A DNA stretch of 64,000 nucleotides from an uncultured Desulfobacteraceae bacterium. Its GTDB lineage: Bacteria > Desulfobacterota > DSM-4660 > Desulfatiglandales > HGW-15. The stretch covers positions 13,414-77,413 of the forward strand of contig CAYQNR010000001.1 in assembly GCA_964418945.1 (NCBI GenBank). The letters are read 5' to 3'. The notes below the pieces were generated by a model. The model was given only the letters and a program-made list of their open reading frames with translations, did not search any database and had not been told where the DNA came from. Shown here in pieces: positions 2,909-63,946 of the stretch. The translations under genes were made by a program, and so were the position numbers. Numbering within the stretch: the stretch's first letter is position 1; every line of letters begins with the position of its first letter.

Positions 2909-3541
2909 TTAAGGGGCAGGGTCCTCCGTGGTTTGCTCCTGGTCCTCGCTTTTCGGGTCCACGTAATAGAACCAGTACGGGTAGTACCGATAATAGGGAT
3001 CATACCACACGGAATCATGAGAATACCCATGGTAGTAGTGATATACATACAGTTGTTCTTCCTCCCACAGGTAAATCTCTTGGACTGAAAGATAAGGGTA
3101 GTGATAGTCAATCTCTCCCAGCTTTATAACCTCTTCACCATCCACCACTCCTGCCACGGTAATCTTCCGGCCTTTACTGTATATCTCACTGTCTAAAAAC
3201 CCCTCATACAGGGCTAAAAAACGCCCCTGAGAAACGTCGGTATTAACAGGTTTTCCGTAACTATCCATCTCCGTCTGGTAAATCTCCAGGAGAGTGCCCT
3301 CTTTCTTGTTTTCTGTCTTGACAATGATCCCTCCCAGAAGAACCACCTTTCCCTTATATGCCCCGGGATCTTTAAGCAATTCTTCAAATCTAATCTCACT
3401 ATCCACCTGATTCAGGATATCTTTTGAGAATATATGGGCACAACCGGCCAAACCTATCCCCAGAAGCAGAATGCCTGCTAATTTTCCTATTAGCCCGGCG
3501 TATATGACATCTTTATCTTCAAGATTCCTGGCAATTGCCAT
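2909..3541 (-). CDS. slp: Slp-family outer-membrane lipoprotein with Tyr/Trp-rich C-terminal tail
   Basis: Signal peptide plus lipobox (GLAGC). The core YKGKVVLLGGIIV...GTLLEIYQ...GRFLALYEGFLD resembles the Slp family. The tail is YVYHYYHGYSHDSVWYDPYYRYYPYWFYYVD. Confidence 0.65.
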   Translation of the reverse strand: MAIARNLEDKDVIYAGLIGKLAGILLLGIGLAGCAHIFSKDILNQVDSEIRFEELLKDPGAYKGKVVLLGGIIVKTENKKEGTLLEIYQTEMDSYGKPVNTDVSQGRFLALYEGFLDSEIYSKGRKITVAGVVDGEEVIKLGEIDYHYPYLSVQEIYLWEEEQLYVYHYYHGYSHDSVWYDPYYRYYPYWFYYVDPKSEDQEQTTEDPAP

Positions 3542-4899: not shown

Positions 4900-5219
4900 G
4901 GTTTATCCGGTCACGGCGGTTCTTTTCAAGACGACATCTATAGTATCCCGTGGACGTGGTCTTATTTTCAAGGGTTTGGCAAACCTTTTCCTGGTGGCAA
5001 AGGCATATTCTGCCAGGGGTTCTGGTGGAGCAAACCCTTCAAACAAGCCCACTGCAGGCCTGGGGTGGAATTCTTTTTGAGATGTCGTTTTTCCAAGAAC
5101 CACCGTGACTTCAGGTCTTAATACTTTTCGAAATGATATCTAAATATTTTGGGCCATTAAGGTACTTATAATAAGCCTTAATCTTTTACTTCTTTGCGTA
5201 CTCATTAACCGGATGAAAC
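4900..5219 (+). mobile_element. MITE-like composite element, copy A (variant cargo module)
   Basis: The right arm and TIR (GCGTACTCATTAACCGGATGAAAC) match the other copies. The left end GGTTTATCCGGT is interrupted by a ~200-bp module with imperfect 29-nt inverted arms at 4910-4938 and 5081-5109. Confidence 0.7.
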
Positions 5220-10434: not shown

Positions 10435-10779
10435 TTTGATCCGGTTAATAAGTACGTAAACAAATAAACGATTAAACCTTATCCGCCTTCGCAGAAGACC
10501 ACGGGTTTACCCGTGGGGCTCCATTATAAGTACCTTAATGGCCCATGGGGCTCTCTTTTAAGCACCGAAAACATTAACAGCATGCGAATTACGTAAGGTG
10601 CCACCCAGGCGGGCGGAATACTTATGAGATATTAGAAAATTCTCGAGTCCGGCCAGATCCGGAAAAGGCTACCCGCCCGCCTCGTCTGGTTTTGTGCGCG
10701 GTCAGTGCCCATAAACGAGTTCGCCGCTTAAAGAGAGCCCCATGGGCCATATAGCGCAAAATATCTTAGATATCATTAT
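10435..10779 (-). mobile_element. MITE-like composite element, copy B (inverted; one TIR missing)
   Basis: One TIR is TTTGATCCGGTTAATAAGTACG. It carries the hairpin segment CCACGGGTTTACCCGTGG and the inner module at 10540-10748 bounded by GGCCCATGGGG/CCCCATGGGCC. Homology on the far arm stops at about 10779 with no TIR. Confidence 0.75.
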
Positions 10780-18287: not shown

Positions 18288-19043
18288 ATGAAAAAAGCCT
18301 GCTTTCTATTTATCTGTGGCGTATTTTTTTTGGTCCATTGTCCCGGTTTCTTATTGGCAGAAGAGACCGGGCCCCCTGAATGGGCCAATGATGCAGATGC
18401 CCTTGAGGATTATTACGAACTGGAGGAAGGTTACGAGGGCATATCGGACCCCTTCGAGCCGATAAACAGGATATTTTTTAGTTTTAACGACAAGCTATAT
18501 TTCTGGTTTCTCAAGCCTGTGTCCTCCTGTTACAGGTTTGTTGTCCCTGAACCAGTAAGGACCAGTCTGGACAATTTCTTTTACAACCTGGAATTTCCGC
18601 TCCGTTTTGTTAATTGTGTTCTGCAGGCCAAGTTTGAAGGCGCTGGTTATGAATGGGGCCGGTTTGTAGTGAATTCGACGGTGGGAGCGGCGGGCTTCTT
18701 TGATGTGGCAGAAAAACATCTCCAAATAAAAAAATATAACGAAGACATGGGACAGACCCTGGGGTCCTACGGCCTTGGGAACGGCTTTTATATCAATTGG
18801 CCCTTCTTGGGCCCATCCAGCGCACGGGATACCTTAGGAGATGTGGGAGATTATTTTCTGGATCCCGTGTTTTATATAGATATCGAGACCAAGTATTCGT
18901 TGGCTGTAACGGGCCTTGAAAAAGTCAACGATACTTCATTGACCATTAATGAATACGAAGATCTTAAAAAAGCCGCCTTTGACCCCTATATCGCCCTAAG
19001 GGACGCCTATTTTCAATATCGCCAAAGCAAAATAGCTGATTAG
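18288..19043 (+). CDS. mlaA: MlaA/VacJ-family lipoprotein
   Basis: DPFEPINRIFFSFND, FVVNSTVG.AGFFDVA and GLGNGFYINWPFLGPS motifs are typical of VacJ. Confidence 0.85.
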   Translation: MKKACFLFICGVFFLVHCPGFLLAEETGPPEWANDADALEDYYELEEGYEGISDPFEPINRIFFSFNDKLYFWFLKPVSSCYRFVVPEPVRTSLDNFFYNLEFPLRFVNCVLQAKFEGAGYEWGRFVVNSTVGAAGFFDVAEKHLQIKKYNEDMGQTLGSYGLGNGFYINWPFLGPSSARDTLGDVGDYFLDPVFYIDIETKYSLAVTGLEKVNDTSLTINEYEDLKKAAFDPYIALRDAYFQYRQSKIAD

Positions 19044-19104
19044 GGACATGATTCTATGACAACAGGATCTTTCCCGGCTTAGTATCTCCATCCGGGAATT
19101 TTTT

Positions 19105-19435
19105 AGTTAATCCGGTTAATGAGTACGCTAGTTAATGATATCTAAATACTTTGCTCTATATGGCCCATGGGGTTCTCTTTTAAAAGGCGAACTCGCTTAT
19201 GTGCAATGACCCTGCACAAAACAAGACGAGGCGGGCGGGTAGCCTTTTCCAGACTTGGCCGGACTCGAGAATTTTGTGTTATCTCATAAGTATTCCGCCC
19301 GCCTGGGTGGCACCTTACGTAGTTAGCATGCTGTTAATATCTTCGCCGCTTAAAAGAGAACCCCATGGGCCATTAAGGTACCTGTAATAAGGTTTGATCT
19401 TTTTCTTCTTTACGTACTCATTAACCGGATGAACC
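19105..19435 (+). mobile_element. MITE-like composite element, copy C
   Basis: TIRs AGTTAATCCGGTTAATGAGTACG ... CGTACTCATTAACCGGATGAACC. Inner module at 19162-19371. No hairpin segment in the right arm. Confidence 0.8.
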
Positions 19436-19571
19436 AATCTTTATCACTATTCAGGAACATAGGCTGTGGACATTTAGACTATAGTCGATAGCGCAGGGGA
19501 AGACCTAAAGCTAAATAGACTGCCGCCTATTCCACCTGATATAAAAGCAATCCTTTTGTGAGGGAGTCTAA

Positions 19572-21188
19572 ATGACTGAACAGACAAGGATGGATCCCGA
19601 AGACCTTTCCATGGTCCTTGATACCATATCCAAGCTGGAGAATGAGAAAATAACTATTGAGAACAAGCTTGCCATGGATCAGGAAGGTCTCTTTCCCACG
19701 GAACTTATCCGCTTCATGCTGGGGCCTGAGGTGGCCCTTCACCTGATTTTTATACCCGCAGAATACGGCGGACTAGGCGCCGGCGCCATGGATATTGCAA
19801 TAGTCTCCGAGAGGATGGCCAAGATGGATCTTGGCATTGCCACCTCTTTTCTTGCCATATGCCTGGGTATGGATCCTATCAGGGTAGCAGCAACCCCGGA
19901 ACAGAAGCAAAGGTTTATAACCAGGATAGCCGAACAAGGCCTTATAGTGGCATACGGCATCACCGAGCCGGAGGCCGGATCCAACGTGCAGGCCCTAAAG
20001 ACCAGGGCGGAAAGAGTGCTGGATGAGAATGGAGGAATTATAGGATATAATCTAACCGGGCAAAAACAGTTCATTACAAACGGCGGGGTGGCCCAGCTAT
20101 ATACCATACTTGCCGAAGCCCCAGACGGCCCTTCCTTTTTTATAGCCGAGGCCGGGGCACAGGGGCTTTCCGCTGGTAAACATGAAGACAAACACGGAAT
20201 AAGGGCCTCCAATACCTGCCCACTGATCCTGGAGGATCTTTTTGTCCCAAAACAAAATCTTATAGGCGACATTGAAGGGCAGGGTCTGAAGCAATCCAAT
20301 GAAGTGTTCGGCTACACCAGACTTATGGTTGCTACCTTCGGACTGGGGGGAGGCATGGCCGCCCTTGAAAAGACTATTGCCTACGCAAAGCAGAGAGTAC
20401 AGTTTGGCTCTACCCTTGCGGAAAAACAGGGCTACACACACAGGCTTTTGGTCCCCAACGCGGTACGGCTGGAGGCGGCCAGGGCGTATATAGAGGAAGT
20501 TGCGTTCAGGCTGGACTCGGGTGAAAAGGACCTGCAAATTGAGGGTTCAATAGCAAAGTATTTTGCCACAGAGGCCGGGGACGCCATGGCAAACGACGCC
20601 ATACAGGGCCTCGGAGGCTACGGTTACATAAGGGAATATGAGGTGGAGAAGATAAAGAGGGATATCAAGATCACTACTATATACGAGGGGACCAGCGAGA
20701 TACAACGCAGGCTAATTGCAATGTTCCGTTTGCAGAAAACAGTACGCTCAAAAGGGGAGTATTATTCGGCTATGGCCGACGCCGTGGTAAAACTTCCGGA
20801 ACACCAGGGGCCCGGCTACCTTGCCAAGGCAATCCGTATAATGAACGATATCATCCTCGCTGCGAGAAGGTCCAAGCTTACCAAATCCCAGTATGTCATG
20901 TTCCTTCTGGCCGACATGATGACCTGGTGCGAAGTAGGGGCGTCCCTCTGCAAAAAGGCTGCTGATTACAAAGCAAAGGAAAGGAGCCCTGAATTCATGG
21001 AGGCCGCGGCCCGGCTCTTCGCGAGGGAGGTTTCGGAAAAGGTCTATATCAACGGTCTGAAGATATGCACGGGCTGTGAAACAAGACTAGATGAACTGGC
21101 CGCAGAACTGAAAGGCATTAGCCTCGCCAACCTGCTAAAAGACAACCTTAAAGACATGGATATAGTCGCGGCCGAATTGGTCAAATGA
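19572..21188 (+). CDS. Acyl-CoA dehydrogenase with ~150-aa C-terminal extension
   Basis: ACAD motifs GITEPEAGSN and IYEGTSEIQR. At 538 aa it is longer than canonical ACADs. Confidence 0.85.
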   Translation: MTEQTRMDPEDLSMVLDTISKLENEKITIENKLAMDQEGLFPTELIRFMLGPEVALHLIFIPAEYGGLGAGAMDIAIVSERMAKMDLGIATSFLAICLGMDPIRVAATPEQKQRFITRIAEQGLIVAYGITEPEAGSNVQALKTRAERVLDENGGIIGYNLTGQKQFITNGGVAQLYTILAEAPDGPSFFIAEAGAQGLSAGKHEDKHGIRASNTCPLILEDLFVPKQNLIGDIEGQGLKQSNEVFGYTRLMVATFGLGGGMAALEKTIAYAKQRVQFGSTLAEKQGYTHRLLVPNAVRLEAARAYIEEVAFRLDSGEKDLQIEGSIAKYFATEAGDAMANDAIQGLGGYGYIREYEVEKIKRDIKITTIYEGTSEIQRRLIAMFRLQKTVRSKGEYYSAMADAVVKLPEHQGPGYLAKAIRIMNDIILAARRSKLTKSQYVMFLLADMMTWCEVGASLCKKAADYKAKERSPEFMEAAARLFAREVSEKVYINGLKICTGCETRLDELAAELKGISLANLLKDNLKDMDIVAAELVK

Positions 21189-21318
21189 TTCTCAACCCGA
21201 ACTCTTTACATTCTCAAAGAAACCTTTTGCTCAACATCACAGAGTTGGTGGTTTAAATCCAGCTGTTGTATAATGTCATTTAGATAATAACGGTTAAAGA
21301 GAAAGGAGCAAGGTCAAA

Positions 21319-21474
21319 ATGAATGATAAGAAAGTAACGAAGGATACACAAATAATGATGCAATGTAAAAACTGCGGTTATCGAGTCATTCAATCAGAGA
21401 TTGACGAAAATGAAGGGAATTGTCCTAACTGTAACGAAGAATTCCAACCTCTGGATGAGTCTTCTCAGAGTTGA
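21319..21474 (+). CDS. Small zinc-ribbon protein (51 aa), absent from the ORF track
   Basis: ATG preceded by AAAGGAGCAAGG. Sequence is MNDKKVTKDTQIMMQCKNCGYRVIQSEIDENEGNCPNCNEEFQPLDESSQS, with CxxC-N17-CxxC. Stop is TGA at 21472-21474. Confidence 0.55.
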   Translation: MNDKKVTKDTQIMMQCKNCGYRVIQSEIDENEGNCPNCNEEFQPLDESSQS

Positions 21475-21558
21475 GTCATTCGAGGAACAAACACGCCGGC
21501 CTAACTGACTTTCTTGCGTCTACCCTGTATCTACACATCCAGGTTGACAGATACTTTT

Positions 21559-22118
21559 GCTTCATCCGGTTAATGAGTGCCCTAGTTAATGATATCTACA
21601 TGTTCTGCGCTATATGGCCCATGGGGTTCTCTTTTAAGCGGCGAACTCGTTTATGTGCAATGACCCTGCACAAAACAAGACGAGGCGGGTGGGTAGCCTT
21701 TTCTAGACTTGGCCCCACTCGAGGATGTTCTATTATCTCACAAGTATTCCGCCCGCCTGGGTGTCACCTTACGTAATTAGCATGCTGTTAATATTTTCGC
21801 CGTGTAAGAGAGAGCTTCATGGGCCATTAAGGTACTTATAATGGAGCCCCACGGGTAAACCCGTGGTCCCATTAAAATACCCGTCTTTCCATCCTCCGTA
21901 GCCCGTCCTCCGCAGTGGCCTGCTACGGAGGATGGACAGGCTACTGCGGAGGACGGGCGCCTCCGGCTACGACGCGGTTATCCGCCTGAACTGGGGGCGA
22001 CATCGCGCCGTAGCAAGCCATCATTTGCGCATTCAACCACGGGCAAGCACGTTGTCTTCTGCGAAGGCGGATAAGGTTTAATCCTTTACTTCTTTACCTA
22101 CTCATTAACCGGATGAAA
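21559..22118 (+). mobile_element. MITE-like composite element, copy D (fullest form, 560 bp)
   Basis: Contains TIRs, the inner module at 21616-21825, hairpin CCACGGGTAAACCCGTGG at 21849-21866, a 170-bp third module at 21867-22036, and a second hairpin CCACGGGCAAGCACGTTG at 22037-22054. Confidence 0.85.
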
Positions 22119-22197
22119 CTTACTTTTTGTGAATTGGCTTCACTTTTATCCTATGATATTATATAATATTTTGAACAAACAAGGAGATGATTAAACA

Positions 22198-24906
22198 ATG
22201 GCTGAAGGACGTCAGGCAACATATCCTGCACAGTATGAGAACGAGGTCCTCCTGAAGGACGGTTCGCGGATCTTGCTGCGACCCATCAGGAGGGATGACA
22301 TTGAACGGTGGCTCGACTTTATCTCGAGGCTCAGCGATCGCACCAAATACCTGCGGTTCCATTCCGTCCCGAAACTGGGGCGTGAAGACGCTATTCGATT
22401 CTGTTCAGTGGACTATGACAATGCCTTTGCCTTTGTGGCCGAGGTGCTGCGAGATAGCCAGCGTCACATCATCGCTATCGGGCGGTATTACCGCATACCC
22501 CACAAGCCCTCGGCGGAAGTCGCCTTTGTCATTGAGGACGCATATCAGGGAAAAGGCATCGCCACCAAGCTTATGGAATGGCTTGCCAACGTCGCTCGGG
22601 ACAATGGTATTTCCATCTTTGAGGCCTCCGTGCTCGCAGAAAACAAAGAGATGATGACTGTCTTTAAGGACTACGGTTTCCATCTCACCAGCAAGTTAGA
22701 GGAAAACGAGTACCGCGTTACTTTCCCCATAGCCAAGACCAGGCTAGTGACTCAGAAAGAAGAACAGCGGGAGCGTATCGCAACGGTGGCCTCTCTCCAT
22801 TCCCTCCTATACCCCCGTTCGGTAGCGGTGATCGGCGCCTCCCGGGAACCGGGCACCATTGGACAGCTCCTCTTCCGGTGCATTATGGAAAACAGGTTCT
22901 CCGGGGTCGTCTATCCCATAAACCCCAATGCCGAGGCTGTCATGTCGGTGAAGGCCTATCCTTCGGTCCTTGACGTACCCGGTGATGTCGATCTGGCGTT
23001 GATCGCCGTTCCAGCGCCCCTGGTTGTCAAAGTAACCGACGAGTGCGGACGAAAAGGGGTGCGCGGGATCGTGGTCATATCGGACGGATTCAAGGAAAGA
23101 GGGGGGGAAGGAATACAGCGGGAACAACAACTCCGGGAGATCGCGCTGGGCCACGGTATGAGGATAGTAGGCCCAAACTGTATGGGTATTATCAACACCG
23201 ACCTCTCCACAAATCTCAATGCCAGCTTCTCTCTGGTTTATCCGCCCCCGGGCAATGTAGCCTTTCTCTCCCAGAGCGGCGCATTGGGTCTTTCCATCCT
23301 TGAGTATGCCAACAATCTAAACATCGGCATTTCCACCTTTGTCAGCGTAGGCAACCGAGCCGACATCTCCTCCAATGATATGCTGCAGTATTGGGAACAG
23401 GATAAGGCCACAAAGGTTATCCTGCTCTACCTGGAATCCTTTGGTAATCCCCGGAAATTCGGCCGTATTGCCAGGAGGGTCTCGGCCAGTAAGCCCATCG
23501 TTGCGGTCAAGGGCGGCAGTAGCACTGCCGGTTCGCGTGCCGCATCCTCGCACACAGGTGCGCTGGCCACCCCACAGATAGCCTCAGACGCCCTCTTTTA
23601 CCAGGCTGGCATCATCAGGGTCAATGCCCTCGAGGAGCTTTTTAACATGGCCACCCTCCTTTCAAACCAGCCGGTACCCACGGGAAAAAGGCTGGCTATC
23701 TTGACCAACGGAGGCGGTCCGGGTATAATCGCTGCTGATGCCTGTGAGCATTACGGGCTCACACTGCCGGAGCTATCCGATAAAAGGATCGAGGCACTCA
23801 AGTCTGTGGTGAAACGTGACATTTCCTTCCGTAATCCTCTGGACCTCACCGCCGGCGCCACAGAGGATGAGTTTAAGACTGTACTCAAGATATTGGCCCA
23901 GGATAACAGTTTTGATGCTGTGCTTACCATCTTTATACCTCCGACTGTCGTCGATCCAAAAGGAGCAGAAGACGCCATACGGGAGGTAGCCCCCCTTTTC
24001 CAGCGCAAAAAGAAGACACTGTCAGCCTGTTTTATGGGACAACGAGGTTTCAACATCAAGCTGGGAACCACTGGAAAACTTATCCCCTGTTACGCCTTTC
24101 CCGAAGAGGCTGTCTCCGCTCTAGCCAAGGCAGCTGAGTACAATGACTGGCTGAAAAGGCCCAGGGGATCCATGCCCAAGATTCGGGGGCTCAAACGGCA
24201 AAAGGCGCGAGAGATCATCGACTCTGCCCTCACCAGCAGTGCTGACAGGCCCCTATGGCTTTCAGCCCAGATGACAGCTGATCTGCTTAAGTGCTACGGC
24301 ATCCGCATAGCCGAGACCGCGGCAGCAAAAACACCTACTGAGGCTGCTGCTGCGGCCTCAAGATTGGGCTTTCCTGTTGCTGTTAAATTAGCCTCCTCCA
24401 CCATCGTGCACAAGACAGATGTCAGGGGAGTGGTCCTCGGCCTTAATTCCGAAGATGAGGTGGAAAAGGCCTTCAAAGATATAAAAGCCAGGCTCGCTGA
24501 GACGGGCCGCCAGTCAGAGATGTGGGGCGTTACGGTGCAACGCATGGTTACAGGGGAAGTAGAGGTGGTCGTAGGAGTGACCCAGGACCCCTCTTTTGGG
24601 CCCATCATCATGTTCGGCCTGGGTGGCATCTATACCGAATTATTGAAAGACGTAGCAGTTAGATTACATCCACTCACCGACGTGGATGCCCACGAACTGG
24701 TAAGCTCTATCAAGACGTCAAAGCTCTTTGAAGGGTTCCGGGGTGCACCTCCCAGTGATACCCGATCCCTTGAAGATTTATTGCTGAGACTTTCGGCTTT
24801 GGTGGATAATATCCCCCAGATCGCCGAGCTAGACCTCAACCCTGTAAAGGTAATGGAGCGTGAGAAAGGATATTGGGTGGTCGATGCGAGGGTTATGGTG
24901 AGATAA
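22198..24906 (+). CDS. GNAT acetyltransferase fused to ADP-forming acyl-CoA synthetase-like domains (Pat-like, GNAT at N-terminus)
   Basis: N-terminal GNAT (QGKGIATKL). It is followed by a CoA-binding/succinyl-CoA-synthetase-like flavodoxin region (SVAVIGASREPG, GPNCMGI) and a C-terminal ATP-grasp domain. 902 aa. Confidence 0.8.
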   Translation: MAEGRQATYPAQYENEVLLKDGSRILLRPIRRDDIERWLDFISRLSDRTKYLRFHSVPKLGREDAIRFCSVDYDNAFAFVAEVLRDSQRHIIAIGRYYRIPHKPSAEVAFVIEDAYQGKGIATKLMEWLANVARDNGISIFEASVLAENKEMMTVFKDYGFHLTSKLEENEYRVTFPIAKTRLVTQKEEQRERIATVASLHSLLYPRSVAVIGASREPGTIGQLLFRCIMENRFSGVVYPINPNAEAVMSVKAYPSVLDVPGDVDLALIAVPAPLVVKVTDECGRKGVRGIVVISDGFKERGGEGIQREQQLREIALGHGMRIVGPNCMGIINTDLSTNLNASFSLVYPPPGNVAFLSQSGALGLSILEYANNLNIGISTFVSVGNRADISSNDMLQYWEQDKATKVILLYLESFGNPRKFGRIARRVSASKPIVAVKGGSSTAGSRAASSHTGALATPQIASDALFYQAGIIRVNALEELFNMATLLSNQPVPTGKRLAILTNGGGPGIIAADACEHYGLTLPELSDKRIEALKSVVKRDISFRNPLDLTAGATEDEFKTVLKILAQDNSFDAVLTIFIPPTVVDPKGAEDAIREVAPLFQRKKKTLSACFMGQRGFNIKLGTTGKLIPCYAFPEEAVSALAKAAEYNDWLKRPRGSMPKIRGLKRQKAREIIDSALTSSADRPLWLSAQMTADLLKCYGIRIAETAAAKTPTEAAAAASRLGFPVAVKLASSTIVHKTDVRGVVLGLNSEDEVEKAFKDIKARLAETGRQSEMWGVTVQRMVTGEVEVVVGVTQDPSFGPIIMFGLGGIYTELLKDVAVRLHPLTDVDAHELVSSIKTSKLFEGFRGAPPSDTRSLEDLLLRLSALVDNIPQIAELDLNPVKVMEREKGYWVVDARVMVR

Positions 24907-29334: not shown

Positions 29335-30422
29335 GGGACGCTCTTTAATAATTTAAAAACTTATCTTTCAAGAGAATAATTACCCTCTTTTGCGATTGAT
29401 TCTCCCCGTTCAACGGAAAATCCGACACCAGCTAAACTCATCTCTAATTTTTTGGCCAGGGATGTATGAGACAGGCCCAATTCCCTGGAAGCCCAAAAAC
29501 ATAAAAGACTCCTCGCCTTTACTTTTCTGTCCTGTCGCCCCTTTGAAAAAACTTCATCCGGTTTCATCCCTAGTACTTCCGAAACCCTCTTGGCTATACC
29601 ATCCAGATCATATCCTTTCCGCCTAAGTCTATGCCTTCGCTCATAGTGTTCCTCAGATTGTGAAATGACCGAATCAACAAAATCAGAATCCCCCAGGATT
29701 CTCTCATCACTCATAATATGAATACCACCCTTCAAAATTTCTCGGGCTTCAGTCCAACCACCAAGACTGCGGATTAATCCACCACCGGTCAATTGTTTCT
29801 TTCGGCCTTGGGTAAAACCTTCTTTAACAAAGGATTCATATTCTTCCCTGGCTTTACTCTTGCTTTTACTAAAATAGCCGAGAACGTAATCAGTATCCTG
29901 CCATTTACTTTCCGTTTTACCCATTAAAGTGCTATGCCCGCAATATTTATAGCTCTTCAATTCATCAAGCGTTTGAACAATTCCTGATCGAATAGGATTC
30001 AGATGAATATATCGGACCAATTCTTTAAGATACCCATCTTCCTGACAGATTATAGATTTGTACCTGTTCTGAAATAATTGACCACTACGTTTATGTCGGC
30101 GGTTAAATCTGATAACATAACCAGTAAGCAAACGTCTCATGAGTCTGGATAACGGCACCGTTCCGGTACGAAAAAGAAAATGTGCGTGATTAGACATGAA
30201 CGCCCACGCATAACAGGTTGTCTGCGTTGTATTACATAGGTTCTCAAGTCGTTCGATAAGATCCTCACGATCTTTATCGTTTCGGAATATCTTCCTGCGT
30301 TCTATCCCCCGAATCATGACATGGTGTAGAACACCTGGAGCATCAAGTCGTGCTGTTCTAGGCATATTTCTTTTTTAATATCGCCATCCTACAATGTCAA
30401 TTAAATTATTAAAGAGCGTCCC
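29335..30422 (-). mobile_element. Y1/HUH transposase gene bracketed by perfect 22-bp inverted repeats
   Basis: GGGACGCTCTTTAATAATTTAA at 29335-29356 is the exact reverse complement of TTAAATTATTAAAGAGCGTCCC at 30401-30422. The pair encloses the single ORF 29361-30365. Confidence 0.75.
29361..30365 (-). CDS. IS200/RAYT-like Y1 (HUH) transposase with C-terminal DnaA-C-like HTH domain
   Basis: N-terminus MPRTARLDAPGVLHHVMIRG, HUH motif SNHAHFLF and catalytic-Tyr region VRYIHLNPIRSGIV. The C-terminal SLLCFWASRELGLSHTSLAKKLEMSLAGVGFSVERGE is HTH-like. Confidence 0.8.
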   Translation of the reverse strand: MPRTARLDAPGVLHHVMIRGIERRKIFRNDKDREDLIERLENLCNTTQTTCYAWAFMSNHAHFLFRTGTVPLSRLMRRLLTGYVIRFNRRHKRSGQLFQNRYKSIICQEDGYLKELVRYIHLNPIRSGIVQTLDELKSYKYCGHSTLMGKTESKWQDTDYVLGYFSKSKSKAREEYESFVKEGFTQGRKKQLTGGGLIRSLGGWTEAREILKGGIHIMSDERILGDSDFVDSVISQSEEHYERRHRLRRKGYDLDGIAKRVSEVLGMKPDEVFSKGRQDRKVKARSLLCFWASRELGLSHTSLAKKLEMSLAGVGFSVERGESIAKEGNYSLER

Positions 30423-32751: not shown

Positions 32752-33114
32752 GGTTCATCCGGTTAATGAGTAGGTAAAGAAGTAAAGGATTAAACCTTAT
32801 CCGCCTTCGCAGAAGACAACGTGCTTGCCCGTGGTTGAATGCGCAAATGATGGCTTGCTACGGCGCGATGTCGCCCCCAGTTCAGGCGGATAACCGCGTC
32901 GTAGCCGGAGGCGCCCGTCCTCCGCAGTAGCCTGTCCATCCTCCGTAGCAGGCCACTGCGGAGGACGGGCTACGGAGGATGGAAAGACGGGTATTTTAAT
33001 GGGACCACGGGTTTACCCGTGAGGCTCCATTATAAGTACCTTAATGGCCCATGGGCCATATAGCGCAAAATACTTAGATATCATTAACTAGCGTACTCAT
33101 TAACCGGATGAAAC
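32752..33114 (-). mobile_element. MITE-like composite element, copy E (inverted; central site empty)
   Basis: By eye, one half is identical to the reverse complement of copy D, including the 170-bp third module at 32835-33004. The central palindrome GGCCCATGGGCC (33046-33057) is uninterrupted. Confidence 0.85.
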
Positions 33115-43343: not shown

Positions 43344-43716
43344 GGTTCATCCGCTTAATCAGTACGGTAGCTAATTATATCTAGATACTTTGCGTTACAT
43401 GGGCCATGGGGTTCTCTTTTAAGCGGCGAACTCGTTTATGTGCTATGACCCTGCACAAAACAAGACGAGGCGGGCGGGTAGCCTTTTCCAGACTTGGCCG
43501 GACTCGAGAATTTTGTGTTATCTCATAAGTATTCCGCCCGCCTGGGTGGCACCTTACGTAGTTAGCATGCTGTTAATGTTTTCGTCCCTTAAAAGAGAGC
43601 CCCATGGGCCATTAAGCTACTTATAATGGAGCCCCACGGGCAAGCACGTGGTCTTCTGCGAAGGAGGATAAGGTTTAATCTTTTACTTCTTTACGTACTC
43701 CTTAACCGGATGAAAC
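43344..43716 (+). mobile_element. MITE-like composite element, copy F
   Basis: Degenerate TIRs GGTTCATCCGCTTAATCAGTACG ... CGTACTCCTTAACCGGATGAAAC. Inner module at 43401-43610. The right arm carries hairpin CCACGGGCAAGCACGTGG. Confidence 0.8.
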
Positions 43717-45174: not shown

Positions 45175-47253
45175 CTAAATAGAAAACTTGGAAAAATCTG
45201 CCATGGTCAAAAAGAGTTCTGCAAGGTGTTGCAATAAGGCTACCCGGTTATCTCTCAGCCCTGGATCTTCCTTTGTCAAGACCTCCACACCATCAAAAAA
45301 TGCGTCTACCGGTCCCTTGAGCTTGGCCAGGACATTTAGTGCATTGAAATAGTCCCTCTTTTCCATAAACTCGCGGATCTCTTTTTCAAGTTCCTGAGAG
45401 GCCTTCCAAAGATCCGTTTCACAGCTTTCTTTAAACATGGACTCATCTACTTTTAGAGGCTCCTTCTGGCCTTTTATTATATTGGAAACTCTTTTAAAGG
45501 TAAGGGCAAGAGACTGGAAATCGTGTGATTCCGATATAAATCTCCTCAGATGCTCCATCCTGACCGAAAGTTCACAAAGGTCGTCAAACTCCGCTGAAAC
45601 AACCGCTTCAATAAGGTCAGTCCCATATCCTAAAGCAGACATCCTGTTTTTATATCGCTCTCTGAAAAAATCAAGCAGGTCACTGAAGGTCTTATCGCTG
45701 TCAAATCTTACATGCTCTCTCAATATCTCCAAAGACCTTGAGATCAGACCGGAAAGGGACACGTTCCAAGCGTTGTTCTCCAGGATTCTTATTATGGCAA
45801 GGGCGTGCCTGCGGAGGGCAAAGGGATCCGCCGCTCCGGTGGGCTGTAATCCGATTGCGAAGCATCCTCCTACCGTATCCATCCTGTCCGCCAATCCCAC
45901 AATAGACCCTATCGGTGATGAAGGTAAATCGTCATCTGCCTTAGCTGGAAGATAGTGTTCATGAATCGCCACGCAGACCTCTTCCGGATGGCCGTCCATC
46001 CTGGCATATTCCCTGCCCATAACACCCTGCAGGGTCGGGAACTCCATAACCATCTCGGTAACCAGATCGCATTTACATAATCTTGCGGCAAGTTGGACAT
46101 TATCGCCCTTTTCCGGTGCTATCTGTTCGGCCAGGTATCTCGCCAATTCCGTAAACCGCTGCACCTTGGCAAAGGAGGTGCCTAGTTCGGCCTGGTAAAT
46201 GACCCCTTTCAGGTCTTCTAATCGGTCTTCAAGGGGCCTTTTTCGGTCCTCATCAAAAAAGAAAACCGCATCTGACAGCCTGGCCTTTAGAACCCTCTCA
46301 TGCCCCTTTGTGACAACCGAATCATCCTTGGGAACGGTATTATTTACGGCCACAAAATGGGGTATTAAACTTCCATTCCTATCCTGGATTGCAAAGTATC
46401 TTTGATGTTCTTTCATCACCGTTATTAAAACGGGTTCGGGAAGATCCAGGAATTTTTCCTCAAATCTGCCGCATATGGAGTAAGGAAATTCCACAAGATT
46501 GGAAACGGTTCTTACCAGATCCATATCTTGCACGGGGACCCCACCAACATCCTTCGCCTTTTTGATTGTCTGGTCTTCGATCTCCTTTCTCCTATCCTCG
46601 GGGTTTATCATCACCGAAGATTCTTTCATCTTCTTGAAATAATCCCGGAGGCCCTTTACTTGCAATGCGCGGGGAGACATAAACCTGTGTCCCATGGTCC
46701 TGCTCCCGCTCCTTACTCCTGCCGTTCCAAAAGGGATCACTCTACCGTCCAAAAGGGCTAGGATCCAGTGAACAGGACGAACAAAGGGGAAACCAATACT
46801 TCCCCACCGCATGGATTTAGGCCAGGGAATCCTGGGTATTACCTGGGGCAGGATCTCCGACAGGACTTCACCGCTAGGCCGACCGGGTATGTGACGCTTT
46901 AGACCGAGATATTCACCTTTCTGAGTCTCTACAATCCGGATATCATCAAGAGTAACCCCGTATTTTTGGGCAAAACCTATGGCAGCCTTTGTGGGATTTC
47001 CTCTCTGATCATATGCCGCTTTCCTCGACGGTCCCATCAATTCCTGGAACATGTCTTCCTGTTTCTCAGCAACCTTCCGGCAAAAAAGCACCATCCGCCT
47101 GGGCGTCCAGTACACGAAAAGTTCCCCCGAAATCACGATTCTGTTTTCTTCCAGACTTGACTTTGTCAGGCGCCCGAACTCTTCCGGGGCACTATCGAGA
47201 TAATCCGAAGGAATCTCTTCCGTCCCTATCTCCAACAAAAATTCAGCAGTCAT
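45175..47253 (-). CDS. glyS: Glycine--tRNA ligase beta subunit
   Basis: N-terminus FLLEIGTEEIP and a length of 692 aa, with GlyS-typical conserved blocks (FATPRR-like WTPRRM, HEHY). No glyQ is adjacent. Confidence 0.92.
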   Translation of the reverse strand: MTAEFLLEIGTEEIPSDYLDSAPEEFGRLTKSSLEENRIVISGELFVYWTPRRMVLFCRKVAEKQEDMFQELMGPSRKAAYDQRGNPTKAAIGFAQKYGVTLDDIRIVETQKGEYLGLKRHIPGRPSGEVLSEILPQVIPRIPWPKSMRWGSIGFPFVRPVHWILALLDGRVIPFGTAGVRSGSRTMGHRFMSPRALQVKGLRDYFKKMKESSVMINPEDRRKEIEDQTIKKAKDVGGVPVQDMDLVRTVSNLVEFPYSICGRFEEKFLDLPEPVLITVMKEHQRYFAIQDRNGSLIPHFVAVNNTVPKDDSVVTKGHERVLKARLSDAVFFFDEDRKRPLEDRLEDLKGVIYQAELGTSFAKVQRFTELARYLAEQIAPEKGDNVQLAARLCKCDLVTEMVMEFPTLQGVMGREYARMDGHPEEVCVAIHEHYLPAKADDDLPSSPIGSIVGLADRMDTVGGCFAIGLQPTGAADPFALRRHALAIIRILENNAWNVSLSGLISRSLEILREHVRFDSDKTFSDLLDFFRERYKNRMSALGYGTDLIEAVVSAEFDDLCELSVRMEHLRRFISESHDFQSLALTFKRVSNIIKGQKEPLKVDESMFKESCETDLWKASQELEKEIREFMEKRDYFNALNVLAKLKGPVDAFFDGVEVLTKEDPGLRDNRVALLQHLAELFLTMADFSKFSI

Positions 47254-47279
47254 GCTTCCCTTTCAACCTCAATCTTTTT

Positions 47280-47601
47280 GGTTCATCCGGTTAATGAGTA
47301 CGGAAAGGACTTTATATAAATACTTGGTTTGGCCCATGGGGTTCTCTTTGCGACAGGCGAACTTGTTTATGTGCAAGGCGCGGGCAATAAGCCGGACTAG
47401 GCGGGCGGCGGGCTATTGGAATAATATACCAGGACCGGAAGTCCGGCTATCATCTCAGAAGTTACCCGCCCGCCTGGCAGGCACCTTATGCTATTATCTT
47501 GCTTCTAACCTTTTCGCCGCTGCAAAGAGAGCCCCATGGGCCGAATATCACCAATCTTGCTATAGTATTATCATTAAGTGTGCTCATTCGCCGGATGATC
47601 C
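47280..47601 (+). mobile_element. MITE-like composite element, copy G (subfamily 2, filled)
   Basis: The arms are nearly identical to copy H. A variant inner module at 47331-47542 is inserted in GGCCCATGGGCC. The element fills most of the glyS-metV divergent intergenic region. Confidence 0.85.
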
Positions 47602-47633
47602 GAATTACCTGTCAGGGATATAGGAGGATTAAG

Positions 47634-53060: not shown

Positions 53061-53182
53061 GGTTCATCAGGTTAATGAGTACGGAAAGGATTTTATATAA
53101 ATACTTGGTTCGGCCCATGGGCCGAACATCACCAATCTTGCTATAGTTTTATCATTAAGCGCACTCATTTGCCGGATGATCC
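53061..53182 (+). mobile_element. MITE-like element, copy H (minimal 122-bp form, empty central site)
   Basis: GGTTCATCAGGTTAATGAGTACGG ... GCGCACTCATTTGCCGGATGATCC around the 20-bp palindrome GTTCGGCCCATGGGCCGAAC. It lies between hypF and hypC. Confidence 0.85.
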
Positions 53183-60731: not shown

Positions 60732-60992
60732 CCATCACCCGGGGGCAGGTACCCGTGGGGAAACGACCCTTGGGGGAGTAAAGAGAAAAAATAGGGGCGA
60801 TGTTGTTCGTCGCAATGATGTATTGTTTACGGATCTGCAACTGAGCACTGACTTGTTAGAATCATGGATAATAGAGGGGGCATGCCTGGCGTCCTACCCG
60901 CCCCCGTATTGAGCTCATGGGGATACCGCTGCAAAAAGCCTTCATTTGTGGAGAGATGAACAGTCGAAAATATGGGGGTCGCGTCTGTACTC

Positions 60993-61067
60993 CTGACAAA
61001 TTCCGTATTAATCATCTATCTACAAGTAGTACTAAATTAAGATACGTGAAGAATGGAGACCTGACCC
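60993..61067 (+). promoter_or_regulatory. Conserved promoter/operator-like block, copy 1
   Basis: About 75 nt, with roughly 80% identity to 63872-63946. It reads CTGACA-N18-TATCTA and then the shared block CAAGTAGTACTAAAT...CGTGAAGAATG. Confidence 0.45.
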
Positions 61068-63468: not shown

Positions 63469-63871
63469 GATTTTAACCCCCTATCCAATGTTTTACAATT
63501 GAGAGGTCTCAGGTGCGCTCTCACGCAAAACAGCCTCCTCCAAAATCACGAGCGGGCCTTTATCTGAGCCTAGCCTGTTTTCAACCGCAGAGCCCGCTCA
63601 GGAAAAACTGTGACAATAACTTAAACCTGGCCTAACAAGTTAACGGCCCATAGCTAACATTTGTTGGGTGAGGTAAGGTGAGGAGATGAGAGCTCCCTTT
63701 TTTGGGGCCTAAGTATAGGTGATTTGGTCCTGCGTGTCAATGATAAAGTCGACGCATGATGTGGTAATCCTCCATTTTGCCTGGAAATCAGATTGATGAG
63801 TGGAGGGCATTCAGAGGTGGGGAAGGTACATCTGGGGCCATATCTTTGTGAAAAGGATGACAGTTTCACTC

Positions 63872-63946
63872 TTGACAGATTTCAGATTAATGATTTATCT
63901 ACAAGTAGTACTAAATAAAAATGCGTGAAGAATGAAGATCTGAGCC
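63872..63946 (+). promoter_or_regulatory. Conserved promoter/operator-like block, copy 2
   Basis: TTGACA-N18-TATCTA plus the same downstream block as 60993-61067. It points toward sequence beyond the window end. Confidence 0.45.

Follow-up and report, generated by a model that had tools for sequence, protein, structure and literature searches.

A probable ISL3-type MITE family with a palindrome-ended core and nested secondary repeats in an uncultured Desulfobacteraceae bacterium

The Correia/NEMIS elements of Neisseria, ERIC/IRU and RUP are non-coding, intergenic and hairpin-forming MITEs bounded by terminal inverted repeats (TIRs), and their long and short forms differ by an internal segment. 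The IS200/IS605-derived PATEs and the REP/BIME/REPIN sequences are moved by Y1 (HUH) transposases. Published MITEs of the ISL3 type include a 187-nt element of Microcystis aeruginosa with 8-nt direct repeats (PMC11448079) and a 179-bp element of Methanosarcina acetivorans related to ISMac21 (PMC3852290), and nested ('Russian doll') transposable elements are already handled in prokaryotic transposable-element pipelines (PMC3852290). Here we analyze eight copies of a repeat within a 64,000-nt stretch of metagenomic DNA (the window) from an uncultured sediment bacterium. Like the ISL3 MITEs, these copies are small, non-coding, present in high copy number and mostly intergenic, with a predicted stem-loop, TIRs that match ISL3 and an 8-bp duplication. 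They are unlike the published ISL3 MITEs in the repeat itself (GGTTCATCCGGTTAATGAGTAC here, GGCTCTTCG-type there) and in that only a ~24-bp repeat is common with the IS, the interior being a conserved ~210-bp palindrome-ended core. TIRs, lack of coding sequence, intergenic position, hairpins and the occurrence of long and short forms recall Correia/NEMIS, ERIC/IRU and RUP; however, parent family, duplication and sequence are all different, the palindromic core is what distinguishes long from short forms here, and the copies hold further, nested repeat families. As in the 'Russian doll' elements, small elements lie inside small ones and composites propagate as units, with up to three layers in 561 bp (MITE, hairpin-ended element and 70-bp insert), whereas the apparent layering of the core is better explained by deletion. 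We consider it likely that the eight copies form a high-copy, non-autonomous MITE family with ISL3-family ends that has been diversified by deletion, secondary insertion and recombination.

A search of the window with the TIR consensus GGTTCATCCGGTTAATGAGTAC returned 11 matches with three or fewer mismatches, compared with none in 100 shuffles; the other copy ends (in B, and the right ends of G and H) carry four mismatches or are truncated. Together with module mapping, this search places eight copies where the original prediction had put them, the single correction being that copy D ends at 22119 instead of 22118. Every copy lies between ORFs of at least 100 aa, in agreement with the claim that none is inside a gene, and at least two arm subfamilies are present as had been proposed, grouped here as A-F versus G/H.

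Copy C (19105-19435, forward strand) has the standard 331-bp form, consisting of TIR, arm, palindrome-ended core (19162-19371), arm and TIR, with no secondary insert. Copy D (21559-22119, forward) is a 561-bp composite whose palindrome-ended core occupies 21616-21825 on the same strand, and copy F (43344-43716, forward) combines a core at 43401-43610 with a 42-bp collapsed element at 43628-43669. Copy B (10435-10779, reverse) likewise has a palindrome-ended core (10540-10748, reverse) and a collapsed 42-bp element but has lost one terminus, its low-numbered arm stopping, in the element's own orientation, at ...ATAATGATATC. Copy G (47280-47601, forward), of the G/H arm subfamily, has its core at 47331-47542; B, C, D, F and G are exactly the five copies in which the core had been predicted. 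The core is absent from the other three. Copy A (4900-5219, forward), of the A-F arm type, retains an intact right arm and TIR and has the core-less junction ...TTTTGGGCCATTAAGG, while at its left end the TIR is cut down to its initial 12 nt (GGTTTATCCGGT), next to which lies a foreign repeat of 200 bp. In E (32752-33114, reverse), which carries a 230-bp element with a nested insert, and in H (53061-53182, forward), a 122-bp form of the G/H type, the central palindrome GGCCCATGGGCC is intact (33046-33057 and 53112-53123, respectively). The copies thus range from 122 to 561 bp and are without transposase coding capacity. Two ORFs that run through copies (47252-47623 and 21471-21776) were rejected as spurious because their frame is not conserved across subfamilies, since core subfamilies differ by a 1-nt indel (alignment column 26) that shifts any read-through frame. 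A promoter and terminator scan of 19000-22300 found nothing notable within the elements.

These copies share their termini with insertion sequences of the ISL3 family. In other genomes, elements of 1,298-1,314 bp are bounded by the exact 18-mer TCATCCGGTTAATGAGTA; they encode proteins of 401-413 aa that match DDE_Tnp_ISL3 (PF01610, E = 1e-79), together with Zn_ribbon_ISL3, and score 304 bits against NF033550 (cut-off 180 bits). In the full-length elements the right repeat GTACTCATTAACCGGATGA reads Y-S-L-T-G-stop and is the C-terminus of the transposase, which accounts for the conservation of the 22-nt termini across phyla. The full-length ~1.3-kb elements are flanked by perfect 8-bp duplications, and 8-bp duplications also flank MITEs with the same TIR in Pirellulales, Desulfobacteraceae and other MAGs. 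Among viral contigs, the TIR 18-mer had one match.

At 84 distinct sites of the MITE family, the 8-bp flanks (82% A+T) are identical in 26 cases and match at seven of eight positions in another 21, where shuffled pairings give 0.4 and 0.9, respectively. Within the window, seven of eight positions match at D (ATACTTTT / TTACTTTT), E (AAGCAGTT / AACCAGTT) and F (TAAATTTT / TAAATCTT), and six of eight at A (TTTGTCTA / TTTATTTA) and C (AATTTTTT / AATCTTTA). A 7-nt repeat, ATTAATA, adjoins both ends of H. For copy G the window shows no target duplication; in its counterpart from another sample the left flank, GAATTACC, is the same as the right flank of G in the window. Because ISL3-family termini occur together with 8-bp A+T-rich duplications, a hallmark of ISL3, the element is, as judged from its sequence, an ISL3-type MITE. 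The original prediction had not recognized it as a described element, yet with these ends and flanks it belongs to a described kind.

No partner IS came to light for the family in the sequences closest to it: a tblastn search with the ISL3 transposase found no match in the 64-kb window, and none was found in 858 kb of related contigs. For most transposases of this ISL3 clade the contig is ~1.3-2 kb long, suggesting separate assembly of the insertion sequence. The ~1.3-kb ISL3 elements with the same ends would presumably supply the DDE transposase to move the MITE in trans, into A+T-rich intergenic DNA, with 8 bp duplicated. BLAST and direct comparison confine the similarity between MITE and IS ends to ~24-41 terminal nucleotides, and beyond the ~24-bp repeat the arms have nothing recognizable in common with the IS ends. 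Its subterminal sequence is thus not homologous to the ends of the parent, and the MITE is not derived from the IS by simple internal deletion.

A comparison with Rfam had been proposed along with the prediction; at the gathering threshold no family matches anywhere in the window, and a permissive search of copy D (E up to 10) gave generic microRNA-hairpin matches only. PLSDB plasmids queried with the DNA of copy C gave no match, and a literature search for the TIR string found no paper. The kind of element is already published, as ISL3-type MITE, and this particular family is without a match in Rfam, PLSDB or the literature searched. A RAYT-mobilized REP or REPIN was ruled out for the outer element, given its TIRs and 8-bp duplications. 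The one gene of Y1 type in the window (29361-30365) reaches 67 bits on NF047646, under the 80-bit cut-off, and is flanked by unrelated inverted repeats of 22 bp. Compared by eye, these repeats of the Y1/DnaA_C-HTH gene (GGGACGCTCTTTAATAA...) and the ends of the core (GGGGTTCTCTTTTAAG...) agree at about 10 of their first 14 nt, but a link between the two is not supported: the Y1 element is close to single-copy, and no other feature joins them.

A metagenome scan with the core motif matched at least 116 contigs, and insertions of the MITE family occupy 84 or more distinct sites, spread over more than 100 related contigs. The family is thus not confined to this locus, and the proposal of a dispersed, TIR-bounded, non-coding and intergenic repeat family with subfamilies holds. 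That it has been active recently, as had also been proposed, finds only weak support in the identities among copies: C, D and F share 86-88% identity with one another, and for 57 distinct paralogues the nearest-neighbor identity is 76-97.5%, with none reaching 99%.

A standard unit measures ~320-330 bp and comprises a ~24-bp ISL3 TIR, a short subfamily-specific arm, the ~210-bp core, a second arm and the other TIR. In copy D the core comprises an inverted-repeat stem of ~30 bp, an internal GC stem (GAGGCGGGYG...CGCCCGCCT) and unpaired blocks that are conserved. In nearly all cases GGCCCAT or GGGCCAT precedes the core ends, and CCCATGGG is found on both sides of the core, within its palindromic ends. 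The original prediction took the 122-bp minimal form for the backbone into whose central palindrome the core had landed. According to this account, a two-arm backbone of ~122 bp would be ancestral, and the palindrome GGCCCATGGGCC would be a recurrent landing pad for an independently mobile inner MITE of ~210 bp, the copies being built up by successive landings. Some observations fit it. The ~30-bp inverted ends of the core show compensatory changes between subfamilies, and the sequence at the occupied site allows for an insertion that duplicated either CCCATGGG (8 bp) or GGGCC (5 bp). The core is also better conserved between subfamilies (~70-80%) than are the arms. An ancient independent insertion would fit all three features too. 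Finally, a 26-nt hairpin insert, identical or matching at 25 of 26 positions, sits at the same core position in two core subfamilies, so site-specific small insertions or conversions do occur.

The distribution of the core nevertheless argues against repeated landing. All 139 core instances among the matches listed, from at least 116 contigs, lie in ISL3-type arms or else at contig ends or degraded termini; none was found outside such arms, and the TIR stands at fixed distances from the core. An autonomous element with the ends of the core was not found in any sequence examined. Core subtypes co-vary with arm subfamilies. Copies without a core account for 8 of the 40 of the A-F arm type; these are polyphyletic, with core-bearing copies as their nearest neighbors, and their junctions differ from copy to copy. 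Moreover, sister families in other genomes have left asymmetric remnants that are explicable only as deletions (for example L020 versus L045, and also L080). Because the core was found in these arms only and its subtype is linked to theirs, and because core-less copies are scattered and differ at their junctions, the 122-bp form is more likely to be a deletion product than an ancestral landing pad, and we regard successive landings as an unlikely history. Loss by deletion appears to be the direction of change and fits better than repeated landing: deletion between the short repeats in the palindromic ends (CCCATGGG) could have produced the 120-130-bp forms represented by H and by the backbone of E.

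It is also conceivable, if rather improbable, that the cores are distinct, long-lived modules, either mobile at hairpin tips and palindrome centers or acting as structured nucleic acids, which ride on different TIR vehicles; if so, structured cores would aid transposition or serve a host function. A different palindromic core, of ~170 bp, sits in MITEs with ISL3 TIRs in other Desulfobacterota genomes, and in the source lineage it occurs, at 73-76% identity, in contexts other than ISL3. This reading is retained because the ~210-bp core is better conserved than its arms and because the ~170-bp core is found in these non-ISL3 contexts. In Rfam, the loci with this second core family have no match at the gathering score.

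We give very little credence to the reading that the repeats or their conserved core are structured-RNA genes or cis-regulatory sites, to which the ISL3 ends would be incidental. The predicted fold is strong, copy C forming nested hairpins as single-stranded DNA with z = -9.7; across 61 cores, 97% of cells are paired, compared with about 50% in slid controls, and several unpaired blocks of the core are nearly invariant. However, no Rfam family was found at the gathering threshold, or with E up to 10 beyond the generic hairpin matches, copies occur in both orientations and in every type of intergenic setting, and compensatory change goes no further than two or three pairs or so, which one subfamily has inherited. 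The TIRs and 8-bp duplications show, instead, that the copies arrived by transposition.

The window is part of a single metagenome contig, in which chimeric assembly at repeats is possible, and the junction of G disagrees with the assembly of another sample. That the copies are a segmental duplication restricted to this contig, or an artefact of its assembly, nevertheless has next to no probability: it is refuted by the dispersal of the family over 84 or more sites, on more than 100 contigs that come from many samples. Against it stand also the unrelated flanks of the eight copies, with 8-bp duplications of their own, and independently made short-read assemblies, which break at copy D.

Recombination between copies appears to have added to the diversity of the MITE family. 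The right half of D is nearly identical to that of E, whereas their left arms are ~88% identical (by eye from the alignment), which suggests that D is a recombinant, with the right half of E joined to another left arm. Copy G sits at a synteny break, which may likewise stem from inter-copy recombination. Its orthologue in the other sample has an extra 37-bp hairpin, with a downstream flank 99.5% identical, pointing to ongoing change.

True nesting is found in the right arm. The original prediction distinguished a ~43-bp segment in B, D, E and F from a 170-bp module beside it in D and E. All four copies are indeed occupied at one right-arm site; however, the two modules are collapsed and full forms of one element of ~160 bp, which also occurs outside the MITEs. 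In D it spans 21843-22072 (forward), from GGAGCCCCACGGGTAAACCCGTGG to CCACGGGCAAGCACGTTGTCTTCTGCGAAGGCGGAT, the full form together with a nested insert making 230 bp, and in E it spans 32799-33028, also 230 bp. The collapsed 42-bp form in B (10481-10522, reverse) retains the loop of hairpin 1 (CCACGGGTAAACCCGTGG), and that in F (43628-43669) retains the loop of hairpin 2 (CCACGGGCAAGCACGTGG). The element sits between TTATAAT and AAGG, and its ends (GGAGCC... and ...GGCGGAT) are not inverted repeats, although hairpins of the form CCACGGG-N4-CCCGTGG lie near both. Comparison of the empty site of C (TGTAAT followed by AAGG) with the filled site of B shows that they differ by the element alone, without duplication, an AT dinucleotide at the junction being ambiguous. 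Standalone copies of ~160 bp with the same boundaries are intergenic and lie away from the MITEs (L128:980-1139; L173:3486-3645, reverse; L121:6128-6282; L114; L157), and forms of 42-44 bp also stand alone (L196:2016; L122:1714). The nested insert of ~70 bp (21888-21957, forward, in D; 32914-32983 in E) is made up, in D, of four CCRTCCTCCGYAG copies in the order a, b, a', b', and is likewise found standing alone (L189, about 3385-3470).

The picture of nested landing pads with layered modules therefore survives in part: self-contained repeats are nested in some copies, but these are the secondary elements and not the core. We envisage that the ~160-bp element entered the right arm, that its full form with the ~70-bp insert persists in D and E, and that deletion between its two hairpins could have given rise to the 42-bp form in B and F. 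Because the four occupied copies share one site, a single insertion followed by spread with the MITE would fit better than repeated landing. In its lack of TIRs and target duplication, its hairpins near both ends, its constant boundaries and its collapsed derivatives, the ~160-bp element resembles PATEs and REPs, as it does in a left flank that usually ends in AT. In the ~1.5 Mb of sequence examined, neither an autonomous element nor a Y1 gene sharing its ends was found, and it is longer than a typical REP. We infer that its mobility depends on a single-strand (Y1/HUH) transposase. In two standalone cases the element stops 17-20 nt ahead of a start codon. A riboswitch or leader was rejected as a reading of the element, since Rfam gave nothing for standalone copies, the genes downstream have no relation to one another and a nearby gene is missing at other copies.

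The foreign repeat in copy A (4910-5109, forward) is a separate ~200-bp unit bounded by TIRs, with inverted ends of 29 nt (GTCACGGCGGTTCTTTTCAAGACGACATC), which probably entered the left end of that copy. It has 55 BLAST matches in the 858 kb of related contigs, in contexts that include cores, other repeats and arms; judging from this spread, it is a dispersed family of its own, independent of the MITE.

These results reveal no new kind of mobile element and no new mechanism; the family is a fairly ordinary case of a known kind. They do put a name, ISL3, to the transposase family on which the dominant repeat depends, and they separate true nesting of independent elements from deletion variants. 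Moreover, short-read assemblies break at these repeats, and at least one synteny break or chimeric join falls on them; contigs from such populations therefore need to be treated with care.

A 22-nt consensus of the terminal repeats, GGTTCATCCGGTTAATGAGTAC, matched the window at 11 positions with three or fewer mismatches and had no match in 100 dinucleotide-preserving shuffles. Extracting and aligning the eight intervals with their flanks, which lie at 4900-5219 (A), 10435-10779 (B), 19105-19435 (C), 21559-22119 (D), 32752-33114 (E), 43344-43716 (F), 47280-47601 (G) and 53061-53182 (H, 122 bp), reproduced the anatomy originally described. These repeats, also found at no fewer than 84 distinct insertion sites gathered from related metagenome contigs, are thus real, dispersed and correctly mapped, save that D, whose start stands, ends one nucleotide beyond the 22118 first assigned. 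As predicted, no copy lies inside a gene: all eight sit between flanking ORFs of at least 100 aa. The window is bacterial in gene content (FtsH, GlyS-beta, HypF), has ~47% G+C and makes up nearly all of a 64,070-bp JGI metagenome contig. The prediction of at least two arm subfamilies also held, as the alignment separates A-F from G/H. E and H keep an unbroken central palindrome, GGCCCATGGGCC. Copies B, C, D, F and G have a ~210-bp core with palindromic ends; B and F contain a 42-bp hairpin segment, and D and E a 230-bp expanded version of it; the left end of A is interrupted by a different 200-bp repeat; and B has lost one terminus. The window also holds a 79-nt direct repeat unrelated to this family (60989-61067 and 63868-63946, 84% identical, 2.9 kb apart).

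We used the 18-mer TCATCCGGTTAATGAGTA to scan a single genome from each species and obtained at least 96 loci, those among the matches listed coming from Desulfobacteraceae, Desulfatiglandales, Syntrophus, Pirellulales, Sedimentisphaerales and others. At several loci, two inverted copies stand 1,298-1,314 bp apart around one ORF of 401-413 aa that matches DDE_Tnp_ISL3 (E = 1e-79) and an ISL3 zinc ribbon, and that scores 304 bits against the NCBIfam ISL3 transposase model (cut-off 180). The transposases of these elements are only 37% identical while the termini are kept, for which there is a simple reason: the transposase ORF extends into the right repeat, GTA CTC ATT AAC CGG ATG A, which translates as ...Y S L T G stop. 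Perfect 8-bp target duplications flank these full-length elements and, in other MAGs, small non-coding ones that share their termini. At the 84 sites of the window's family, the 8-bp flanks (82% A+T) are identical at 26 and match in 7 of 8 positions at 21, as compared with 0.4 and 0.9 for shuffled pairings; in the window itself the flanks match at 7/8 for D, E and F and at 6/8 for A and C, and the 7-nt repeat ATTAATA stands at either end of H. With ISL3-type ends, an 8-bp duplication and no coding capacity, the family is therefore an ISL3-type MITE. Although the original prediction did not recognize a described element, the kind has been described, with published examples in Microcystis (PMC11448079) and Methanosarcina acetivorans (PMC3852290). 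The family itself had no match in Rfam, a query proposed at the outset, in PLSDB plasmids or in the searchable literature, and it has only the ~24-bp repeat in common with the ISL3 insertion sequences, its arms being otherwise unrelated to their ends. In several phyla, unrelated MITE families (84-313 bp) also have the same ISL3 termini (Pirellulales MAGs at loci L005, L022, L040, L058 and L092, and other TCATCCGGTTAATGAGTA loci), most with clean 8-bp duplications; a single ISL3 clade has therefore given rise to many independent MITE families.

Neither the window nor 858 kb of related contigs encodes an ISL3 transposase, a weak argument for its absence. A search at the protein level gave 4,870 relatives at E <= 1e-40, one cultured host being Syntrophus aciditrophicus. 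Most of the best 120 lie on contigs of 1.3-2 kb, suggesting that assembly tends to leave the insertion sequence on a short contig of its own.

The copies had been interpreted as nested landing pads, layered from a 122-bp backbone into larger forms. A core-internal motif was found on at least 116 metagenome contigs, many of which belong to the source sample or its sister samples. Among the matches listed, all but three of 139 core instances have an ISL3-type repeat within reach, and those three and the one-sided instances mostly fall at the end of a contig or show a terminus that is degraded or interrupted. The repeat stands at fixed distances, 74-90 nt away on one side and roughly 244-252 nt on the opposite one, and GGCCCAT or GGGCCAT almost always precedes the core's inverted ends, so the core is always in the same setting; no autonomous-looking element was found between paired core ends. 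The core occurs in at least five arm subfamilies, and its subtype goes with the arm subfamily. Eight of 40 copies with A-F-type arms are core-less; these do not cluster, the nearest relatives of each by arm sequence are core-bearing, and their junctions vary (...TATATGGGCCATGGGCCATTAAGG in some, ...TATATGGGCCATTAAGG in others). In sister families from other MAGs, short forms retain an asymmetric piece of their own core, for which deletion is the only possible origin (e.g. L020 vs L045 and L080; the L020-L045 breakpoint carries the direct repeat GCAGTC). In the window's family the direct repeat is CCCATGGG, on both sides of the core, and deletion between its two copies yields exactly GGCCCATGGGCC. 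Together, the restriction of the core to these arms, the tracking of subtypes, the scatter and differing junctions of core-less copies and the remnants argue that the standard element is probably the ~320-330-bp core-bearing unit, with H and the backbone of E as its deletion products. The less likely alternative, in which an independent element entered the palindrome long ago, would draw on the core's own inverted ends (~30 bp), on two or three pairs of its outer stem that are changed on both sides between subfamilies, and on its greater conservation than the arms between subfamilies. We favor the deletion reading, under which part of the proposed layering runs the opposite way, from larger to smaller; landing pads remain an apt description for the secondary elements and probably not for the core. 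Inverted-repeat symmetry of the core is strong (97% of cells paired vs about 50% with slid partners); independent compensatory events are too few to argue for selection on RNA structure. A second palindromic core family (~170 bp; …AGTGACTATCGGGAGGGCGCTGTTATTTCAGG…GGGGGACCCCC…), with no Rfam match, is found within MITEs with ISL3 TIRs in other Desulfobacterota MAGs and, at 73-76% identity, outside ISL3 arms in the source lineage, where it adjoins repeats of the type found in A (genomes: L024, L038, L057, L076; metagenomes: L111, L148, L190, L209, L214).

BLAST against related contigs merged the 43-bp segment and 170-bp module, previously taken as separate, into collapsed and full forms of one element. 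The full form, ~160 bp from GGAGCCCCACGGGTAAACCCGTGG to CCACGGGCAAGCACGTGGTCTTCTGCGAAGGCGGAT, has a hairpin near each end and lacks a terminal inverted repeat. It stands alone in intergenic DNA, without a surrounding MITE and with constant boundaries (L128:980-1139, L173:3486-3645, L121:6128-6282, L114, L157), bearing out the idea that some larger copies contain self-contained repeats. Empty C (TGTAAT|AAGG) and filled B reveal no target duplication, an AT dinucleotide at the junction being ambiguous. The 42-bp form, which keeps the loop of the first hairpin in B and of the second in F, is what is left after deletion between the two hairpins; standalone collapsed forms of 42-44 bp occur at L196:2016 and L122:1714. 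D and E carry the full form plus a further ~70-bp insert of four copies of CCRTCCTCCGYAG, in the order a, b, a', b'; this insert occurs alone in L189. As the element occupies the same site in all four occupied window copies (B, D, E, F), a single insertion that afterwards travelled with the MITE is a simpler account than four independent landings. It resembles IS200/IS605-derived palindrome-associated elements or REP-type repeats, which Y1 transposases move in single-stranded form, and by this analogy it may be mobilized in the same way; no autonomous partner was found. A leader RNA was rejected, there being no Rfam match and the downstream genes being unrelated.

Separately, the window encodes a protein of 334 aa with a Y1 (IS200-like) transposase domain and a weak DnaA_C-like helix-turn-helix match (29361-30365, minus strand), bracketed by perfect 22-bp inverted repeats, GGGACGCTCTTTAATAATTTAA (29335-30422). 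It scores 67 bits on the REP-associated tyrosine transposase model, below the cut-off of 80, and is 83% identical to the product of a gene in a Desulfatiglandaceae MAG (L046) that the same repeat adjoins; a 58-bp derivative in L216 (2135-2192) consists of the two repeats only.

Other small repeats are nested in the family. The 200-bp repeat in A has inverted ends of 29 nt and 55 BLAST matches in related contigs, in varied contexts including the inside of cores. Two small hairpin inserts also occur both inside cores and elsewhere (L120:321-361, L146, L155:3795, L206:6466; L144, L185, L200, L042). The larger (37-41 bp, CCCTTCGAC…GTCGAACGGGG) is found inside G-type cores and at unrelated sites; the smaller (23-26 bp, GACGAAGATCCCGGTTCACCGGGG) follows CCGCCCGCCT at an identical position within cores of two subfamilies, where the 26-nt insert is identical or matches at 25/26. 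The orthologous copy of G in another sample has the 37-bp hairpin, its downstream flank being 99.5% identical. This difference, with the near-identity of the 26-nt inserts, shows that small modules are gained, lost or converted over short times.

Copies within a subfamily are typically 85-95% identical, and a perfect 8-bp duplication is kept at about a third of the 84 sites. Nearest-neighbor identity among 57 distinct paralogues ranges from 76 to 97.5%, with no pair at 99%. The family originally proposed as large and recently active is large and not ancient, but these values do not establish a very recent burst.

The right halves of D and E are practically identical, down to the 230-bp element and to arm variants restricted to this pair. 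Read by eye from the alignment, the left arms of the two agree at only ~88%, which suggests a recombinant. In the window no target duplication flanks G, and synteny breaks exactly at this copy: in the other sample (L120:1-560) the C-terminus of a NiFe-hydrogenase large subunit lies upstream instead of glyS, and the last 8 nt of that left flank, GAATTACC, are those of the window's right flank. These two features point to either rearrangement or recombination between two MITE copies or chimeric metagenome assembly at the repeat. In short-read assemblies of other samples (L098-L102), contigs with the gene downstream of D begin within or beside its right end, indicating that the repeat breaks such assemblies.

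The repeats of the window form a family of ISL3-type MITEs whose palindromic core is conserved; this family has been invaded by other small repeat families and reshaped by deletion and recombination. The kind is already known and this particular family is new; its relevance, to those who work on mobile DNA and those who assemble such genomes, is moderate.
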